64,000 nucleotides of DNA from Escherichia coli (lineage in GTDB: Bacteria; Pseudomonadota; Gammaproteobacteria; Enterobacterales; Enterobacteriaceae), in assembly GCF_003019035.1 (NCBI RefSeq), contig NZ_CP027447.1; one strand, given 5' to 3'. Under the pieces are notes generated by a model. It ran no database searches. It saw only the letters and a list, made by a program, of their open reading frames with translations, and was not told the origin of the DNA. Shown in pieces: positions 1 through 40,271 of this stretch. The translations under genes and the position numbers were made by a program. Position 1 is the first letter of the stretch. Every line of letters begins with the position of its first letter.

Positions 1-505
1 AAATCCCCTGATCTTCACGGTTGAGACGCTGCTTAACCGCTTCTTTGTTGATCATCTGGTTAACGGAGAAGTGTTTGCCAATATCGCGCAGGAAGGTCAG
101 CACATTCATATTGCCGAACCAGTCATAGTTGTTCGCCGCGATAGCAGAGTTTTCTCCACAGTCGAAATCGAGGAACGGGGCAACCTGCTTGCGGATTTTG
201 TCCACCCATTCCTGAACAGTTTCTTCGGTGTTCAGCTTACGCTCAGCAGCTTTGAAGCTCGGGTCGCCAATCAGACCCGTCGCGCCGCCTACCAGCGCAA
301 CCGGCTTGTGGCCCGCCTGCTGGAAGCGTTTCAGGCATAACAATGGAACAAGATGCCCCAAATGCAAGCTGTCAGCGGTAGGATCGAAGCCGCAATAGAG
401 CGCGATCGGGCCTTGCGCCAGTCGCTCTGCTAACGCTTCCTCGTCCGTCACCTGGGCTACCAGCCCCCGCTCTTGCAATTGTTTAATCAAGTTACTGCTT
501 GCCAT
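1..505 (-). CDS. tyrS: Tyrosyl-tRNA synthetase, N-terminal ~168 codons only (gene continues beyond window start)
   Basis: Reverse-complement translation from the ATG at 503-505 reads [19 protein letters not shown]...[14 protein letters not shown] (HIGH motif); no stop within window. Confidence 0.9.
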
Positions 506-633
506 CAAAATCTCCATGTATATAACGACTGCACCTTTGCCGGTACACGACTTTTCGCCAGATGCGAAAGAGACATAGAATAAAGTGCCAGAATCAGGAG
601 TACCAGCGATTAAAGCAAGATTTTTGCATCTTT

Positions 634-1290
634 TCAGGGGGCAAGACGATCAATCTTCCACGCATCATTTTCACGCTGGTACAAAAAGCGGTCATGCAGG
701 CGATGCTCACCGCCCTGCCAGAACTCAATCTGTTCAAGGCTGACGCGAAAACCGCCCCAAAAACTCGGCAATGGCACTTCGCCCTGTTGAAACTTCTGCT
801 TCAGCTCCAGGAATTTACTTTCAAGGATACCGCGGGCAGAAATGCGACTGGACTGCTTCGAAACCCATGCACCAATCTGGCTATCACGGGGGCGACTATG
901 AAAATATTTCATCACTTCGAGAGTCGAAAGTCGTTCCGCTTTACCGATCACCATCACCTGGCGTTCAAGGGTATGCCACGGGAACAGCAGGCTAACGCGC
1001 GGATTATTTTCAATTTGATGTGCTTTACGGCTGCCGAGGTTGGTGTAAAACACCATGCCTTTTTCGTCGTAATGTTTGAGTAAAACGATGCGCTGATAAG
1101 GCTGACCATGTTCATCCACGGTAGCGACCACCATCGCGGTAGGGTCCGCCAGTTTGGCGTCACAAGCCTGAGAGAGCCAACGTTCAAAAAGGGTTAATGG
1201 CTCGGCAGGAAGATCGCGGCGGCGTAACCCGCCTTTGGTGTATTCACGGCGCAGATGCGCGATTTGCTGCAATTCGTCGTTATCAGACAT
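634..1290 (-). CDS. pdxH: Pyridoxine/pyridoxamine 5'-phosphate oxidase
   Basis: 218-aa [30 protein letters not shown]..., recognised as PdxH; lies upstream of tyrS on the same strand. Confidence 0.9.
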
Positions 1291-1348
1291 GGTTTTCTTT
1301 ACGGATTGTCAGTGGGTGACGCTATTGTGCGCCGCCCCTGGAAAAATC

Positions 1349-1678
1349 TCAACGCTGTGGATTTTGTAACTGACAGTTATTCAAGACGATGCGGTCGCGT
1401 TTATAGACAGTCGCTTCCTCGCCTTTCGACCAGAAAACATAGATCCCGTCGGTGTAACGTGCACCAGACGCAGAAATGCCCTGTTTGAGATGCAATAGTT
1501 GATTATCATAAACAAAACTGACTTCCTGGCGCGGATTATTCAGTTTGACCGTCAACGGTTTTTCATCACACTGGTATTCCAGCGTATCGGTTTGCATGCG
1601 CTCAACCAGTTGATTGAACGCGCTACAGCCGGTGAGAAGGACCGGCAAACAGATCAGTAACAGTTTTTTCATAGACAT
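1349..1678 (-). CDS. mliC: Membrane-bound lysozyme inhibitor of C-type lysozyme (lipoprotein)
   Basis: 109-aa ORF with signal peptide and lipobox LLTGC; recognised as MliC/YdhA. Confidence 0.85.
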
Positions 1679-1775
1679 ATCCCGAAGACTTTCCTGGTCT
1701 GGAGGGCAATACGCCCTCCCTAACGTTCCAAGTGTAACGGCAGACGCGGTAAGAAAAATTCAGTTAACTCTGATA

Positions 1776-2885
1776 TCACGGGTTAGCGGGGAAAATAGCC
1801 CCCAGTACCGTCTCCTGGCTTGCGCCAGTGACGGAAGGCAGATTTCCTGGTAATCCCGCCAGCGTTCGCCAGGCAAGCCAGGCGAACGCCAATGCTTCCA
1901 TGTCATCGCCACTAATGCCAACGGCATCGGTGGTGGTGACTTCTGTGCCTGGCAGTAATGCCGCCAGACGCGCCATGAGTAGCGGATTACGACTTCCTCC
2001 ACCACATACCATCAATCGTTCGCAGCCACCGCTCAACAAAACTTGTTCAGAAATGGTCACGGCGGTTAGTTCTGCCAGTGTCGCCTGTACATCTCGGGGA
2101 TCAACCCCCGGAAAATGGCGCAAATGGCGCTCCAGCCAGCCGTAGTTAAAGTATTCGCGTCCGGTACTTTTCGGTGCAGGTTGCGAGAAATATGGGTCGC
2201 TGAGCATATTTTGCAGCAGTGGGAGAATGACTTTACCCGCCCGTGCCCACTCGGCATCTTTATCGTAAGGTTTACCGGCCTGACGCCAGATCCAGGCATC
2301 CATCAGCATGTTACCAGGGCCGGTATCGTAGCCCCCTACCGGCTGCCCAGGAATGAGCAGTGACAGATTGGCGATGCCACCAATATTGAGCACCATTCGT
2401 CGCTCGGTTGGGTGAGCCAGCAGCGCATGATGGAACGCAGGTACCAGCGGTGCGCCTTGTCCTCCCAAGGCAATATCGCGACGGCGAAAATCACCGACAA
2501 CCGTAATTCCGGTGCGCGCCACAATTTGATTGTTATCGCCAATCTGTAAAGTGTGTGGTGCCACGCCCGTCGGTTCATGCCAGACGGTTTGACCGTGACA
2601 GCCGATCGCAACGATATCTCTCGCCTGCAGGTTTTGTTCCTTAAGCAAGGCATTGACCGCATCAGCAAAAAGTCGCCCGAGTTGAGTATCAAGTTGTCCA
2701 AACTGCGAAAGTGTAAGCTGCTGGCCCTGGCAAATATCCAGTACAGCCTGTTTCAAAGACACCGGGATCGGCCAGCTCAAACTTGCCAGCTGTGCGACCC
2801 GGTGTTCATCAATTGTCGCCAACACAACATCAACACCATCAAGGCTGGTGCCTGACATAACGCCAATAAAGCGGCCCGATTTCAT
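1776..2885 (-). CDS. anmK: Anhydro-N-acetylmuramic acid kinase
   Basis: 369-aa [26 protein letters not shown]...; recognised as AnmK/YdhH. Confidence 0.9.
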
Positions 2886-2994
2886 AGTTCATCCTTTTTC
2901 AATCTGACGTTTGCGCACCACTCAAACATAAACTTTTCGTGAATACTATGCGGAATGACCGATTTTTACCGTTGGTAGTAAAACATTATCTTCA

Positions 2995-3000
2995 AATCAA
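2995..3000. repeat. Target-site duplication, low-coordinate copy, (A)ATCAA
   Basis: AATCAA immediately precedes the TG prophage terminus at 3001; the same hexamer follows the CA terminus at 40272..40277. Confidence 0.6.
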
Positions 3001-3045
3001 TGATGCGCCGCGCGATAAACGTACCTATTTCCGTGAGATAAATTA
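3001..3045. repeat. Right-end terminal inverted repeat with two putative transposase-binding motifs
   Basis: TGATGCGCCGCGCGATAAACG...CCGTGAGATAAAT; motifs GCGATAAAC (3012..3020) and CCGTGAGATAAAT (3031..3043) are mirrored at the other end. Confidence 0.55.
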
Positions 3046-3078: not shown

Positions 3079-3651
3079 TTACAACTCAGCTTGAGTTTGA
3101 AGTTCCTCTACAGGGTGATAACGATAAATCGTCGATATACCGATATCGTAAATAATTGCCAACTGTTTCCTGCTATAGCCATTTTTGATCAGCCTTGCTA
3201 TTTGTTCATGTTGCTCTTTTGTCAGTTTCGGACGACGTCCACCAATACGCCCCTGTGCACGTGCTGCTTCAAGTCCGGCCAGTGTTCGTTCGACTATTAA
3301 TTCACGCTCCATTTCCGCTAAAGCCCCCATGACGTGAAAAAAGAAACGTCCCATGGGTGTTGACGTATCAATGCTGTCTGTAAGACTACGGAAGTTAACC
3401 CCTTTTTCCCGCAGTTCCTCAATAAGAGTGATTAGGTGTTTCATGCTTCTGCCCAGCCTGTCCAGCTTCCAGACAACGAGCGTATCTCCTTCTGATAACG
3501 TTCTGAGCAGCTTTTTCAATCCCGGTCGGGCTGACTTTGTTCCGCTGATTTTATCCTCAAAAATCAGTTCACATCCTGCGCAGTTCAGTGCGTTTCGTTG
3601 TAAATCTGTATTCTGGTCATTTGTTGACACACGAATGTAGCCAATTTGCAT
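3079..3651 (-). CDS. Site-specific DNA invertase, serine recombinase of the Gin/Pin/Hin/Cin/Min family
   Basis: 190 aa from the ATG at 3649-3651: MQIGYIRVSTNDQNTDLQRNAL... with the catalytic Ser motif and a C-terminal HTH (GYSRKQLAIIYDIGISTIYRY). The track ORF extends further upstream from a non-ATG start. Confidence 0.9.
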   Translation of the reverse strand: MQIGYIRVSTNDQNTDLQRNALNCAGCELIFEDKISGTKSARPGLKKLLRTLSEGDTLVVWKLDRLGRSMKHLITLIEELREKGVNFRSLTDSIDTSTPMGRFFFHVMGALAEMERELIVERTLAGLEAARAQGRIGGRRPKLTKEQHEQIARLIKNGYSRKQLAIIYDIGISTIYRYHPVEELQTQAEL

Positions 3652-3705
3652 GAAAAATATCCTCTTTGTTTTGTTAAAAATACATAGCTGGTATAGGTGG
3701 GAGTT

Positions 3706-3930
3706 AAGACGAAAACGTTGGTTTGGGGGAAGGCTCTGCACTACCTGTTGGTGTGCCTGTTCCATGGCCGTCAGCCACACCGCCAACAGGGTGGCTGAAA
3801 TGTAACGGTGCAGCATTTTCTTCTGAAATGTACCCCAATCTGGCAAAGGCTTACCCCACGAATAAATTACCGGATTTACGGGGCGAATTTATCCGTGGCT
3901 GGGATGACGGACGAGGTATTGATGCAGGAC
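3706..3930 (+). repeat. Repeat copy A (~215 bp) starting with a candidate invertase crossover site
   Basis: GAAAACG-TT-GGTTTGGGGGAA at ~3706..3731 (core TT 3718-3719) resembles hix/gix half-sites (TTnnnnnAAACC); followed by the conserved tail-collar coding block GEGSALPVGVPVPWPSATPPTGWLKCNGAAFSS... Confidence 0.7.
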
Positions 3931-4184
3931 GAGAGATACTTTCATTTCAGGAAGGCACTATCGTCTCCGGTTTTGATGATAATGATACTGGGGATATCAG
4001 TTCACTTAGCTCAACACAATACGGATTTGGTGACACTCTAACCTCTAATCAATGGGGGGCCATAAATGGCAAAAAGTGGATATTTGATGCATCCAGTAAA
4101 GGTGCACAAAAATATGACTGGTGGGCTTATGTATCAGCTCGTCCGCGTAATATTGCATTTAATTACATCGTAAGAGCGGCATAG
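3723..4184 (+). CDS. Silent alternative tail-fibre C-terminal cassette A (tail-collar half plus variable receptor-binding end)
   Basis: 153 codons opening at TTG, no canonical start; shares the N-terminal ~68 aa and the terminal SARPRNIAFNYIVRAA with the expressed fibre; inverted relative to the fibre gene. Confidence 0.65.
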   Translation: MGEGSALPVGVPVPWPSATPPTGWLKCNGAAFSSEMYPNLAKAYPTNKLPDLRGEFIRGWDDGRGIDAGREILSFQEGTIVSGFDDNDTGDISSLSSTQYGFGDTLTSNQWGAINGKKWIFDASSKGAQKYDWWAYVSARPRNIAFNYIVRAA

Positions 4185-4402
4185 AAACGTTGGTTTGGGG
4201 GAAGGCTCTGCACTGCCCGTTGGTGTACCTGTTCCGTGGCCCTCAGCCACTCCACCAACGGGCTGGCTGAAATGCAACGGCGCAGCATTTTCTTCTGAAG
4301 ATTACCCCAAACTGGCACAGGCTTACCCCGCGAACAAATTACCGGATCTACGGGGTGAATTTATCCGTGGCTGGGATGACGGGCGAGGGATTGATGCAGG
4401 AC
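4179..4402 (+). repeat. Repeat copy B (~215 bp) starting with a candidate invertase crossover site
   Basis: AGAAACG-TT-GGTTTGGGGGAA (core TT 4191-4192) directly after the stop of cassette A; same conserved coding block. Confidence 0.7.
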
Positions 4403-4671
4403 GTGCTTTATTAAGCTTTCAAACTGGGATGCTGGAAAAACACCGCCATATTGTTGTAGCTAACGATGGGTATGACACAAAGGATGAATGGGAGTTGGCC
4501 ACAATTTTCAAAAAAACATATACACAAGGACGGGGACTTGATGCCACAAGTACAGGCGGGAGTCTGATCCCATCACCGACACTTCATTCACGAGGGAGTA
4601 TTGGTAACACTGGTGGTAGTGAAACTCGCCCCCGCAATATCGCATTTAACTATATCGTGAGGGCGGCTTAA
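4195..4671 (+). CDS. Silent alternative tail-fibre C-terminal cassette B
   Basis: 158 codons opening at TTG; conserved N-terminal block and terminal ETRPRNIAFNYIVRAA; distinct variable middle. Confidence 0.65.
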   Translation: MGEGSALPVGVPVPWPSATPPTGWLKCNGAAFSSEDYPKLAQAYPANKLPDLRGEFIRGWDDGRGIDAGRALLSFQTGMLEKHRHIVVANDGYDTKDEWELATIFKKTYTQGRGLDATSTGGSLIPSPTLHSRGSIGNTGGSETRPRNIAFNYIVRAA

Positions 4672-4677
4672 TTATAC

Positions 4678-5295
4678 TCAACTGGCTGCTGCCAGAGGCA
4701 TTTCCGGCCAGTTGATATCCGGTGCAGTGCTGATGTCAGTCGCATTAAGCGTATCTATGAAATCAAGCACGGCGTTTAGTTTTTCCGTCTCCTGGGGCGT
4801 CAATCGGCGTCCGGCTCGTAGTTTGAGATTAATAAGCTCAACAGATGCCATTGCCTGTTCCTCAAGTTGCTGACGATGCGCTCCGGCAGCTTCCAGTTCT
4901 GCTGCGTGCTGTCGTCTCGTATCTGTCACCCAAATCTCACCATCCCAGACATCATAGATAGTAGCTGGCTGTTTCACCGTCGTATCAGGAGGGTAATCTC
5001 CCGGTTGTGTGATTTGCACAGCGTTACCATTCTCTGTGCTGTAAACCGTTTCGCCTCTGTGGTCTGGAACATATTTCCAGATGTTCTGGTCGGTATCACG
5101 ACAGACAGCGAAGCCGGGGCGTTTTTCTGGTGGCGCGTCAATGCATGAGTGAGCCGGAATTCCAACACCATAAGCGAGATACTCAACAGTGGCAGAGAGA
5201 TATTCACGGTTTTCAGCATCGTAGTTATAAACGGTAATATCGCCTGCAGTTATAGCGATACCATTCTGATCAAGTACTGCAGCAGCATTATTCAT
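4678..5295 (-). CDS. Tail fibre assembly protein (Tfa; Mu U / P2 G-like chaperone)
   Basis: 205 aa with the Tfa-type C-terminus ...LNAVLDFIDTLNATDISTAPDINWPE...; its ATG overlaps the stop of cassette 3 (TAATG); the only tfa in the region. Confidence 0.8.
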   Translation of the reverse strand: MNNAAAVLDQNGIAITAGDITVYNYDAENREYLSATVEYLAYGVGIPAHSCIDAPPEKRPGFAVCRDTDQNIWKYVPDHRGETVYSTENGNAVQITQPGDYPPDTTVKQPATIYDVWDGEIWVTDTRRQHAAELEAAGAHRQQLEEQAMASVELINLKLRAGRRLTPQETEKLNAVLDFIDTLNATDISTAPDINWPEMPLAAAS

Positions 5296-5768
5296 TAAGT
5301 AGCCCTTACAATATAGTTAAACGCAATATTACGGGGGCGGTTTTCCGTTCCTGTATTCCCTCCGTTGGCACCTAATCTATAAACACCACGAGTGCCAATA
5401 GCACGTAGTGAAGATGGAACTTTTACACCTGACTCATCTGTTTTAACAATCCCGCCATCACCGTATGTAGCCAGTATACCAGGGTTTGTTCCTGCACGGG
5501 TGCTGTTTGCGGCAAGCCCTTCACCAGTCCATAACTCCATATAATGAATATGATCTATAACCGAATGTGATTGTGCATTAAGCAAGGAACGCCCTGAATC
5601 AATTCCCCGCCCGTCATCCCAGCCACGAATAAACTCGCCCCGTAAATCCGGTAATTTATTGGTGGGGTAAGCCTTTGCCAGTTTGGGGTACATTTCAGAA
5701 GAAAATGCTGCACCGTTACATTTCAGCCACCCCGTTGGCGGCGTGGCTGAAGGCCATGGAACGGGCAC
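5295..5768 (-). CDS. Alternative tail-fibre C-terminal cassette 3 (same orientation as the fibre gene, translationally coupled to tfa)
   Basis: 157 codons from a GTG; conserved block then unique variable region, ending ...RPRNIAFNYIVRAT. Confidence 0.65.
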   Translation of the reverse strand: MPVPWPSATPPTGWLKCNGAAFSSEMYPKLAKAYPTNKLPDLRGEFIRGWDDGRGIDSGRSLLNAQSHSVIDHIHYMELWTGEGLAANSTRAGTNPGILATYGDGGIVKTDESGVKVPSSLRAIGTRGVYRLGANGGNTGTENRPRNIAFNYIVRAT

Positions 5769-5815
5769 ACCAACGGGCAGCGCCGAGCCTTCCCCTAAAC
5801 CAACGTTTTCATGCG
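5588..5815 (-). repeat. Repeat copy 3 with candidate crossover site
   Basis: Minus-strand GAAAACG-TT-GGTTTAGGGGAA (plus-strand core 5802-5803) directly after the stop of cassette 2. Confidence 0.7.
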
Positions 5816-6147
5816 GCTCTTACGATGTAATTGAATGCAACGTTGCGGGGGCGTGTTTCTGCTGTGCCGACAATACTGGTACTCAGTCCTGTCGCTGTTC
5901 GTTTGTTATTTTTATTCCCTTCGATAAGACAGTTGTAATCGTCATTACCAATTAACGAGTTGGTGGCATCAATACCGTCCGGGGACAAGGCATTAGTTGT
6001 GGAACTTAAAGTCAGCATCTCGTCTGAACTTGGAAGATTTTTTAATGGGGTCTCATTACGTGAAATACCCGCATAAAAAAAGGACTCATGCCTGTGCGCT
6101 TCAAAAGAGTCATCCTGAAGACTTAGCAAGGCACGCCCAGCATCCAA
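5809..6147 (-). CDS. Alternative tail-fibre C-terminal cassette 2 (variable part; conserved block lies upstream at ~6135..6357)
   Basis: Track ORF opens at TTG within ...WDDGRGLDAGRALLSLQDD...; ends ETRPRNVAFNYIVRAA. Confidence 0.6.
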   Translation of the reverse strand: MDAGRALLSLQDDSFEAHRHESFFYAGISRNETPLKNLPSSDEMLTLSSTTNALSPDGIDATNSLIGNDDYNCLIEGNKNNKRTATGLSTSIVGTAETRPRNVAFNYIVRAA

Positions 6148-6358
6148 GCCACGTCCATCATCCCAGCCACGGATAAATTCACCCCGTAGATCCGGTAATT
6201 TGTTCGCGGGGTAAGCCTGTGCCAGTTTGGGGTAATCTTCAGAAGAAAATGCTGCGCCGTTGCATTTCAGCCAGCCCGTTGGTGGAGTGGCTGAGGGCCA
6301 CGGAACAGGTACACCAACGGGCAGTGCAGAGCCTTCCCCAAACCAACGTTTCTATGCT
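6135..6358 (-). repeat. Repeat copy 2 with candidate crossover site
   Basis: Minus-strand AGAAACG-TT-GGTTTGGGGAAGG (plus-strand core 6345-6346) abutting the stop of the expressed fibre gene. Confidence 0.7.
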
Positions 6359-7317
6359 GCTCTCACAATGTAGTTAAAGGCGATGTTGCGTGGACGAGTT
6401 ACATTAAAAAAGGACCCACTTAAAGCAGCTTTGGCACGACCAGCGACGTTACCCAGAATTGCATACCATAAATAATCACTCCTGTAATTCGTTGAAAATG
6501 TTTTATCGCCACCGTAATCAATACTATTTCCGTTACTCATATATGAAATATCAACTGCGGCATCATTGTCATCTCTACCACCAACCAAAGTACCTTTCTG
6601 CCACCCAAGCAACTGGCGACCAGGATCAATCCCGCGCCCGTCATCCCAGCCACGGATAAATTCACCCCGTAAATCCGGTAATTTATTGGTGGGGTAAGCT
6701 TTTGCCAGTTTGGGATACATTTCAGAAGAAAATGCTGCACCGTTACATTTCAGCCAGCCCGTTGGTGGTGTTGCTGAGGGCCACGGAACAGGCACACCAA
6801 CGGGCAGCGCAGAGCCTTCCCCCAAACCAAGGTTTTTGACAAACAGCGCAGGATCAGGAATATCTGCGCCGTTCTGGTCTTTAGCCAGCTTTTCCGCCAG
6901 CTTGTTCAGTACCGTAGTCGCAAAGTTTGGATCATTACCGAGAGCGTCAGCCAGCTCTTTAAGCGTATCCAGTGTCTCAGGGGCGCTGCCTGCAAGCGCC
7001 GCAAGTGCTTTGGCCACAAACTCCGTTGTCGCCAGCTTTTTGCTGTTATCGCCATTTGCAGGTGTAGGTGCTGTTGGTGTGCCGGTGAATGTCGGACTGG
7101 CTTTCTGTGCGTACTGGGTATGCGGGTCTGCTGCCGCGATGTGTTTCGCAAGGTCAGCCCCGCCTTTTTCAACCTGTTGCTTCAGGTACAGCGTGCGGCT
7201 GGCCAGTTGTTTACCCTGACGGTTAGAAATTCCGTCAGGTCCGCCCAGAACGGGGTCAGAGACCTCAATCTGGTAGATGCCGTCTTCCCACTGCGGGGTT
7301 TCGGGTAGATTTGCCAT
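6352..7317 (-). CDS. Tail fibre protein (constant N-terminal part fused to currently expressed variable C-terminus 1)
   Basis: 321 aa; N-terminal fibre region (TTEFV motif), tail-collar block from residue ~164, ends VTRPRNIAFNYIVRAA; position matches Mu S. Confidence 0.85.
   Translation of the reverse strand: MANLPETPQWEDGIYQIEVSDPVLGGPDGISNRQGKQLASRTLYLKQQVEKGGADLAKHIAAADPHTQYAQKASPTFTGTPTAPTPANGDNSKKLATTEFVAKALAALAGSAPETLDTLKELADALGNDPNFATTVLNKLAEKLAKDQNGADIPDPALFVKNLGLGEGSALPVGVPVPWPSATPPTGWLKCNGAAFSSEMYPKLAKAYPTNKLPDLRGEFIRGWDDGRGIDPGRQLLGWQKGTLVGGRDDNDAAVDISYMSNGNSIDYGGDKTFSTNYRSDYLWYAILGNVAGRAKAALSGSFFNVTRPRNIAFNYIVRAA
6612..6843 (-). repeat. Repeat copy 1, inside the expressed fibre gene, with the crossover site joining constant and variable parts
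   Basis: Sense-strand GTCAAAAACC-TT-GGTTTGGGGGAAGG (plus-strand core 6829-6830), a near-palindrome AAACCAAGGTTT resembling hix. Confidence 0.7.
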
Positions 7318-29557: not shown

Positions 29558-30322
29558 ATGAAAATGCAGTCATTACCCATCGTTCCATGGATTGGTGGCA
29601 AACGCCGCCTTGCAAAACACATTCTGCCGCTGTTTCCGGCGCATGAATGTTATGTGGAGCCGTTTTGTGGGGCAGCAGCGCTCTATTTTCTTAAGACACC
29701 CGGCAAGATCGAAGTCATTAATGATATCAACGGTGAACTGGTGAATCTGTACCGGGTGGTAAAGCATCACCTGGAAGAATTTGTCCACCAGTTCAAATGG
29801 GCGCTGGTCAGCCGTCAGATCTACAAGTGGCTGCAGATCACCCCGGAAGAAACACTGACGGATATCCAGCGTGCAGCACGGTTCTACTACCTCCAGAAGC
29901 AGGCGTTTGGCGGCAAGGTAGCAGAACACAGCTTCGGTACCTCCACCACATCCCCGCCACGCTTCAACCTGCTGCGTATTGAAGAAGAACTGTCAGCGGC
30001 ACACCTGCGACTTTCCAGAACAGTCATAGAACACATGGACTGGCAACAGTGCATTGAGCGCTATGATCGTCCGCACACGCTGTTCTACTGTGATCCGCCG
30101 TATCTGGGTACGGAAGGCTATGGTGTGGATTTTCCTGAAGGGAACTACTCGCGGCTGGCAGAGCTGGCCCGGTGCATCAGAGGAAAAATGATAATTTCGG
30201 TGAACGACATCCCGCAGATGCGCGAGGTGTTCACTGGACTGAACATACAGACAGTGAATATCAACTACAGTCTGGCGGGGAAACCCACGCCGCGCCGTGA
30301 ACTGATAATCTGCAACTTCTGA
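29558..30322 (+). CDS. DNA adenine methyltransferase, Dam-like
   Basis: 254 aa with the N-terminal AdoMet-binding region (FCGAAALYF) and the catalytic DPPY motif (YCDPPYLG). Confidence 0.85.
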   Translation: MKMQSLPIVPWIGGKRRLAKHILPLFPAHECYVEPFCGAAALYFLKTPGKIEVINDINGELVNLYRVVKHHLEEFVHQFKWALVSRQIYKWLQITPEETLTDIQRAARFYYLQKQAFGGKVAEHSFGTSTTSPPRFNLLRIEEELSAAHLRLSRTVIEHMDWQQCIERYDRPHTLFYCDPPYLGTEGYGVDFPEGNYSRLAELARCIRGKMIISVNDIPQMREVFTGLNIQTVNINYSLAGKPTPRRELIICNF

Positions 30323-40226: not shown

Positions 40227-40271
40227 TTATTTATCTCACGGATCCCCCTTCATTTATCTCATGTCTGATCA
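40227..40271. repeat. Left-end terminal inverted repeat with two putative transposase-binding motifs
   Basis: Reverse complement reads TGATCAGACATGAGATAAATG...CCGTGAGATAAAT, mirroring the right end. Confidence 0.55.

Follow-up and report, generated by a model that had tools for sequence, protein, structure and literature searches.

A Min-type DNA-inversion switch in a Mu-like prophage of Escherichia coli with five tail-fibre tips of predicted split-collar fold and a single tfa gene

How can one assembly-chaperone gene serve a tail fibre that has five alternative tips, and how is that gene expressed once DNA inversion has turned it around? These questions are raised by a locus in a 64,000-nucleotide stretch of Escherichia coli DNA (contig NZ_CP027447.1; the whole stretch is called the window here), in which a tail-fibre gene, four silent tip cassettes and one tail-fibre assembly gene, tfa, lie beside the gene for a DNA invertase. 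By the features examined, the locus is a Min-type (p15B-like) multiple DNA-inversion host-range switch in a Mu-like prophage. The explanation that we consider probable as a whole, though well short of certain, combines this switch with split-collar tips and one tfa that acts on all tips. The question of tfa expression after inversion is a real one, and it is most acute for the tip called B. The entire switch system spans positions 3079-7317, whereas the initial annotation was confined to 4678-6352; that interval takes in tfa and cassettes C and D and leaves the rest of the system outside. The features of the locus are as follows.

3079-3651, minus strand: gene for a serine DNA invertase of the Din/Hin family, Min-type, 190 residues (Pfam Resolvase, E 1.6e-51; HTH_7, E 1.3e-13)
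3706-3731, plus strand: crossover site sA at the 5' end of cassette A, core AAACG-TT-GGTTT (pattern search, site alignment; repeat families I1, I4 and I6)
3720-4184, plus strand: silent cassette A, 147-residue tip type, no HxH motif, tail codons at 4140-4181 (PF07484 Collar, E 7.6e-15; alignment)
4178-4203, plus strand: crossover site sB (repeat families, site alignment)
4192-4671, plus strand: silent cassette B, 152-residue type, HxH motif KHRH, tail codons at 4627-4668 (Pfam, alignment)
4678-5295, minus strand: tfa, the sole tail-fibre assembly gene, 205 residues (PF02413 Caudo_TAP, E 8.7e-26, residues 80-200)
5295-5801, minus strand: silent cassette C, 161-residue type, HxH motif HIH, tail codons at 5298-5339 (Pfam, alignment)
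5790-5815, minus strand: crossover site sC (repeat families, site alignment)
5809-6344, minus strand: silent cassette D, 171-residue type, HxH motif HRH, tail codons at 5812-5853 (Pfam, alignment)
6333-6358, minus strand: crossover site sD (repeat families, site alignment)
6352-6828, minus strand: expressed tip E, 151-residue type, no HxH motif, tail codons at 6355-6396 (Pfam, alignment, AlphaFold2, Foldseek)
6817-6842, minus strand: crossover site s0, TTGTCAAAAACC-TT-GGTTTGGGGGAA, within the fibre gene where constant part and tip are joined (site alignment)
6829-7317, minus strand: constant 5' part of the tail-fibre gene (open reading frame; the same part is joined to other tips in relatives)

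The entire fibre gene, at 6352-7317, encodes 321 residues. Pattern search and alignment revealed five 26-bp hix/mix-like crossover sites (...AAAC(C/G)-TT-GGTTTGGGGGAAGG...) with imperfect dyad symmetry and a 2-bp core. They stand at the 5' end of each tip cassette, two oriented one way and three the other. Site s0 is, as we take it, closely like Hin hixL, and site sA adjoins a spacer of about 60 bp before the invertase gene that is conserved across loci. The invertase is 96% identical to that of the P1-like plasmid pEH09-18-41_2 and 79% identical to e14 PinE. Its link to p15B Min therefore runs via the P1-like plasmid invertase, with which the comparison was made using the pEH09-18-41_2 sequence; a P1-like plasmid invertase of this kind is reported as 98.5% identical to p15B Min (PMC6906374).

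In the proposed mechanism, the serine invertase would recombine the five sites, each of which stands at a tip cassette's 5' end, and each inversion would exchange the inner parts of two convergent arms. A single constant 5' part of the fibre gene could in this way be joined to any of five 3' tips, in 48 isomers. Because the sites lie at the cassette 5' ends and recombination takes place between inverted sites, the region keeps the form of two convergent arms in every state; reading of one starts at the fibre gene, that of the other at the invertase side. Only one junction lacks a site, and it is there that the arms meet: tfa and cassette B face each other with their 3' ends, their stop codons 6 nucleotides apart. 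Since the inner parts of the arms trade places in each inversion, tfa-C and B would change sides together in every event. An enumeration of isomers gave 48 reachable states, and this model reproduces the arrangements seen in related loci.

Natural isomers in the related loci, with tfa in either arm, are the evidence for inversion; the window strain is known from one arrangement. One constant fibre part was found joined to six different tips, with a 178-residue upstream part and differing tips in loci L002, L005, L007, L008, L010 and L011. The type of cassette A is the expressed tip in L005, and cassette B is the expressed tip in L008, in which the other arm stacks D, a 137-residue cassette type, E, C and tfa. 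The tfa gene is co-oriented with the fibre gene in the window, L001, L002, L003, L011 and L012, and antisense to it in L005, L007, L008, L010 and L013. The latter isomers bear out the expectation that some inversions leave tfa inverted relative to the fibre gene.

We examined the ends of the five tips by alignment. The initial annotation had claimed that all five variants share a C-terminal tail of 14 residues, and this was confirmed: RPRN(I/V)AFNYIVRA(A/T) closes the expressed fibre and each of the four silent cassettes, as ARPRNIAFNYIVRAA in A, TRPRNIAFNYIVRAA in B and E, NRPRNIAFNYIVRAT in C and TRPRNVAFNYIVRAA in D. The residue before RPRN, given as T or A, is correct for the other cassettes, whereas in cassette C it is N. 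The divergence claimed for the upstream segments also held when the five variable regions were aligned. About 75 N-terminal residues are almost invariant among the tips, and the centres up to the tail are not alignable. The PF07484 phage tail collar domain was detected in all five tips (E 5e-15 to 3e-14), and the HxH motifs number one each in B, C and D and zero in A and E.

Codon analysis showed that the 14 tail codons are near saturation for synonymous differences (proportion per site, pS, 0.84), with a nonsynonymous value (pN) of 0.025. The resulting pN/pS of 0.03 corresponds to strong purifying selection. These values indicate that the tail is conserved at the protein level and owes its constancy neither to chance nor to recent gene conversion. 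In the conserved 5' parts of the cassettes, about 200 nucleotides each (3741-3944, 4213-4416, 5577-5780, 6121-6324 and 6604-6807), pS was 0.35, compared with 0.84 in the tail codons. On sequence grounds, this low value suggests either DNA-level homogenisation beside the crossover sites or a younger common ancestry from which the tails are excepted.

The tail was present in all 63 complete cassettes, with at least 16 centre types, from the 14 loci of our survey. The survey was limited to these loci, most of them from E. coli genomes, because a search with a single Tfa protein gave only five close relatives. The wider family comprised 11,428 cluster representatives at E<=1e-3; among the best 150 representatives of the 50% identity clusters, the tail formed the C-terminus in 79 of the 79 proteins with both the collar and the tail motif. 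It is also common to lambda Stf (...VKNIAFNYIVRLA), T4 gp37 (...VKNIAFNYIVRLA), e14 StfE (...RPRNIAFNYIVRAA) and Gp298 of phage phiR1-37 (...RPRNIAFNYIIRAK).

The constancy of the tail beside a hypervariable centre is what a split-collar fold predicts, and it is explained by a published structure. The collar domain D10 of T4 gp37 consists of residues 811-881 and 1010-1026, and the needle D11 (882-1009) is inserted in it (PMC6957217). A chain path that leads out and back, returning to the collar, was described for the tip of another phage (PMC12609058). By phmmer, the solved structure closest to the fibre was the receptor-binding tip of T4 gp37, 2XGF; the N-terminal collar part aligned with it, and the tail aligned separately at the extreme C-terminus (...VKNIAFNYIVRLA). 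We modelled tip E with AlphaFold2 from an alignment of 44 diverse homologues, which were representatives at 50% identity. The pLDDT (predicted local distance difference test) scores lay at 92-97 over residues 1-45 and at 81-88 in the tail, with a strand at 145-149, and the centre of the model was of low confidence. A model built from a 17-sequence cassette alignment was dropped (mean pLDDT 40). A Foldseek search of the tip E model against the PDB gave 2XGF as the best match (E 1.7e-6, probability 1.0), followed by T4 gp12, and the 2XGF match ran end to end.

Judged from sequence and model, each cassette is thus a predicted tip of the T4 gp37/gp12 type, with a collar split by a variable insertion and with the tail as the C-terminal piece of that collar. 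The collar would be formed by about 75 N-terminal residues and the 14-residue C-terminal strand, and the variable insertion of 50-90 residues would form the distal receptor-binding end. As the chain goes out and returns, both ends of the cassette are fixed, and the tail is therefore invariant. The initial annotation had read the invariant tail, together with the single chaperone, as a sign of chaperone recognition; by itself the tail is no such sign, being explained as the C-terminal segment of a split collar.

There is one tfa gene for the five variants, as the initial annotation had stated. No second tfa-like gene was found in the 64 kb, either by tblastn with the window Tfa, e14 TfaE and e14 TfaP, which returned only the known gene, or with a profile hidden Markov model of seven Tfa proteins run against 626 stop-to-stop segments, which gave one match at 4e-100 and the next at E ~1. 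The ATG of tfa overlaps the stop codon of cassette C (cassette 3 of the initial annotation) in ACT TAA TG, so the reported TAATG junction is indeed seen in the sequence. A Shine-Dalgarno-like AAGGG lies ahead of tfa, inside the cassette C tail codons GTA AGG GCT. In Mu and P1, each fibre variant has its own tfa. This was taken as established knowledge, and the corresponding pairing in e14 (L004, in K-12) was checked directly: StfP is paired with TfaP, and StfE with TfaE. In contrast, one tfa and many cassettes occur in all related elements examined, namely the Mu-like prophages L001, L002, L005-L008, L010 and L011, the P2-like prophage L012, and the P1-like phage-plasmids L003 and L013, which have 7-10 cassettes each.

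By homology, Tfa belongs with T4 gp38 and lambda Tfa in one family. Homology over the first 125 residues extends to lambda Tfa (36%, E 2e-14) and T4 gp38 (31%, E 2e-8), and the protein is 61% identical to e14 TfaE. T4 gp37 needs gp38, which has been proposed to draw the C-terminal ends of gp37 together (PMC3004832). A modular model has been published in which the N-terminal domain of Tfa binds the fibre and the C-terminal domain trimerises (PMC9608196). The genes for lambda Stf and phiR1-37 Gp298 encode a collar and a tail and are followed by a tfa. Without its Tfa, Gp297, Gp298 fails to trimerise, and the Tfa then stays bound (PMC13030884). The short centre of Gp298, which lacks HxH (GDAIRNI...FDAS..VPTANEN), has relatives among the cassettes of L003, L012 and L013 that lack a tfa. 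The StfE-type centre occurs coupled to tfa in e14 but faces tfa convergently in L003; the C-type centre, coupled to tfa in the window, is in L013 the expressed tip and convergent. Five cassette types were found both with a Tfa of the window type and with a TfaE-type Tfa that is 40% divergent. All tfa-adjacent cassettes carry an HxH motif. The idea that only HxH tips need Tfa was rejected, as B and D have HxH without tfa and the non-HxH Gp298 needs Tfa.

These observations make it plausible that one Tfa acts on all five tips: its N-terminal domain is homologous to chaperones whose fibres share the collar and the tail, a short-centre tip such as Gp298 needs its Tfa to trimerise, and the same centre types are coupled to tfa in one element and uncoupled in another. 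Most likely, Tfa serves all tips via the shared collar, including the C-termini at which fibre folding starts, and we infer this as the most economical reading. The earlier proposal of one Tfa for all variants therefore stands in so far as it rests on conserved features, that is, the homologous N-terminal domain and the relatives with the same collar; the step from the invariance of the tail to a recognition tag does not.

As for expression, tfa would be the last gene of its current arm. When it lies in the fibre arm, it would be transcribed by read-through from the fibre operon and translated from its own Shine-Dalgarno-like sequence. Read-through is feasible because no terminator-like site was found on the minus strand from the fibre gene to tfa. 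The enumeration showed that tip C is always followed by tfa, and that tips A, D and E have tfa in their own arm in half of their isomers. The 60-bp invertase-proximal spacer showed only weak promoter-like elements by eye (TGGTATAGG, with the final T missing).

Several points weigh against a Tfa that serves every tip. Half of the isomers (24) have tfa in the other arm, and every B-expressing isomer is among them. Cassette B is innermost in its arm and therefore always opposite tfa; in the enumeration it is expressed only when alone in the fibre arm, where tfa is necessarily antisense. If all tips need Tfa and tfa is expressed only by read-through, B should be useless. Yet the B centre is under strong purifying selection, with a pN/pS of 0.08 within the prophage family (pS 0.20, pN 0.015) and of 0.06 over all loci. 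Since B is conserved although locked opposite tfa, either B is Tfa-independent or tfa is expressed apart from the fibre operon. This selection on B must be read with some caution, since elements in which B is free of that lock, L003 among them, may trade B alleles with the prophages. The initial annotation had raised the possibility of a tfa promoter independent of the fibre gene. A sigma-70 consensus scan found none on the tfa strand upstream of tfa, and activator-dependent late promoters are undetectable in this way; nor did the scan find a promoter entering the invertible region from the invertase side. In addition, tfa is translationally coupled to one cassette only, C. The Tfa of the prophage family is about 40% different from the TfaE type, and the neighbouring cassette differs too, so some co-variation of Tfa and cassette is possible. 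Tfa may contact the 14-residue tail, the rest of the collar or the centre.

These points bear on what else the arrangement could mean. Tfa might be a dedicated chaperone, needed only by the coupled tip C, while the other tips, with their short insertions, fold alone or with host factors. The TAATG coupling with C only, the selection on B in its position opposite tfa, the natural isomers with antisense tfa, the outcome of the sigma-70 scan for a tfa promoter, and insertions of 50-90 residues compared with 128 in T4 gp37 all fit such a chaperone. However, Gp298 needs its Tfa even though its short non-HxH centre is akin to that of tfa-less cassettes, StfE-type and C-type centres are coupled in one element and uncoupled in another, and T4 gp37 and lambda Stf need gp38 or Tfa; we consider a dedicated chaperone unlikely. 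It is a minor but real possibility that Tfa binds the 14-residue tail and that the tail is conserved mainly for this purpose, as the initial annotation had it. The tail is invariant and always at the extreme C-terminus, it is found together with the N-terminal domain family of gp38 and Tfa in T4, lambda, e14, phiR1-37 and the window prophage, and chaperones of the Tfa class are thought to start folding at fibre C-termini. On the other hand, the tail is already accounted for as a core strand of the collar fold, and the N-terminal half of the collar, of about 75 residues, is equally conserved, so that the tail is not singled out.

Similar cassette ends could in principle also be produced at the DNA level, by gene conversion or by a requirement of the recombination sites. 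The tail codons adjoin the next crossover site in three of the five cassettes, within repeat families D3 and I7, and the pS of the 5' parts is compatible with some homogenisation there. However, the tails of B and C adjoin no site and are equally conserved, the tail is kept in the non-invertible fibres of T4, lambda and phiR1-37, and the combination of high pS and low pN in the tail codons refutes gene conversion as the cause of their identity. Such an artefact is hardly credible. A different reading concerns the place of tfa rather than the tail. The position of tfa could itself be switched, so that production of A, D and E could occur both with Tfa and without it, that of B only without it and that of C only with it, or tfa could be kept on in both arms; we regard this as rather improbable. 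Tfa-type chaperones that stay on the fibre and aid host binding have been reported for phiR1-37, Mu and lambda. If the position is switched and the Tfa of the window also stays on the fibre and aids host binding, chaperone-capped and uncapped tips would add a second layer of host-range or on/off control. The alternative would be an undescribed, orientation-independent route, for example a late promoter on the invertase side, by which tfa is on in both arms.

The reading that we prefer, with one Tfa for all tips of a Min-type switch, can be set beside systems that are already known. The Min system, which the P1-like plasmids carry, was reportedly first described in plasmid p15B, by Sandmeier, Iida and Arber in 1990-1992. 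The window shares with p15B and the P1-like plasmids more than two mix-like sites and a constant fibre 5' part with alternative 3' cassettes. With the P1-like plasmids it also shares the invertase (96% identity), the cassette family, even cassette types, and one tfa inside the invertible DNA. They differ in the carrier and the fibre, a plasmid with a fibre of about 975 residues there and a Mu-like prophage with a 321-residue fibre here. They also differ in cassette number (7-10 in those examined, five here) and in Tfa, which is 40% different. The Mu G/Gin, P1 C/Cin and e14 P/PinE switches have the same invertase family and crossover-site type (79% identity to PinE). The StfE-TfaE pair of e14 is homologous to the cassette C-tfa unit of the window, and the core segment of B and tfa-C has a like convergent layout in the two-state switches. 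Those switches, however, have two variants, each with its own tfa (checked for e14), whereas the window has no tfa on one side of the core segment, and both arms carry a stack of additional cassettes that lack tfa.

The likeness to T4 gp37 with gp38 and to lambda Stf with Tfa lies in the split collar, the insertion, the C-terminal ...NIAFNYIVR.. strand and the homologous N-terminal domain of the chaperone. In contrast to the window fibre, those of T4 and lambda are not invertible, and the T4 gp37 needle has about 128 residues and seven HxH motifs, compared with insertions of 50-90 residues and zero or one HxH here. Gp298/Gp297 of the Yersinia phage phiR1-37 likewise shows a collar, a short non-HxH centre, an RPRNIAFNYIIRAK tail and then a tfa, but there a jumbo lytic phage carries just one fixed fibre, paired with a tfa of its own. 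The R64 shufflon, which varies the PilV tips, also undergoes multiple inversions and joins one constant N-terminal part to alternative C-terminal segments. It differs in its tyrosine recombinase Rci, its other sites, its product, a pilus adhesin, and the lack of a chaperone gene. According to a 2025 paper, PinQ can invert the P segment of e14, which yields a chimeric StfE2 that blocks T2 adsorption (PMC12529663). This effect indicates that silent fibre cassettes of the collar-tip family can have host-side phenotypes.

The element that carries the locus was delimited as follows.

3002-40268: complete Mu-like transposable prophage, 37.3 kb, in the anmK-slyB intergenic region (ends, gene content)

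Positions 1-3001 of the window are E. coli chromosome with pdxH, mliC and anmK, collinear with K-12 at 98% identity, and K-12 homology picks up again at 40269. The prophage encodes an rve-family transposase, a MuB-like AAA protein, a Mu-type portal, a contractile tail and P2/Mu-type baseplate genes. Its termini are TGAT...ATCA, with an CGTGAGATAAAT motif repeated at both ends, and the host AATCAA (about 6 bp) is duplicated at its flanks. In other strains, close relatives are inserted elsewhere in the chromosome, at sites unrelated to this one, and they often cut a host gene short; a SWIM zinc-finger gene and a 4Fe-4S protein gene are among those truncated. The gene content, the termini, the host duplication and the scattered sites of relatives together identify a Mu-like transposable prophage. 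The switch locus lies at the left end of the prophage, with only 77 bp of prophage left of the invertase gene, and in Mu the matching position is occupied by the G segment and gin. The locus matched 1,933 of 5,426 complete E. coli genomes. A gene for a D12-class N6-adenine DNA methyltransferase is located at 29558-30322, between the late and early regions of the prophage (Pfam E 3e-29).

Some cassettes showed individual features. In cassette D, the G run at about 6336-6339, just 3' of the crossover core (6333-6345), is GGGG, compared with GGGGG in the other cassettes. The G5 run is intact in the D-type alleles of L005, L006, L008 and L011. On joining to the constant part, this 1-nt deletion would shift cassette D out of frame (VKNLGLGKALHCPL...); either the cassette is dead or the missing G is a homopolymer sequencing error. 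In L001 (E. coli JB2), the expressed fibre open reading frame at 6276-6938 stops after ...GFDDNDTGDISSIRF without a tail and is followed by an unannotated gap of about 390 bp; this expressed tip looks like a disrupted or hybrid one. In the P1-like plasmids L003 (6173-6652) and L013 (8045-8530), the cassette abutting the tfa 3' end closes with ...NYIVRAD rather than ...RAA, whatever its centre type. This suggests that the last codons are part of a fixed junction sequence at the distal end of tfa.

The locus adds one more case to the p15B Min design, an already-known kind of system. Tips of the gp37 type are swappable modules in host-range engineering, and their family is very large. If one Tfa folds tips with many unrelated centres via the collar, one chaperone would be enough for a whole library of tips. 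With tip B locked opposite tfa, nature provides a clean experiment on whether the chaperone is needed at all by such tips.

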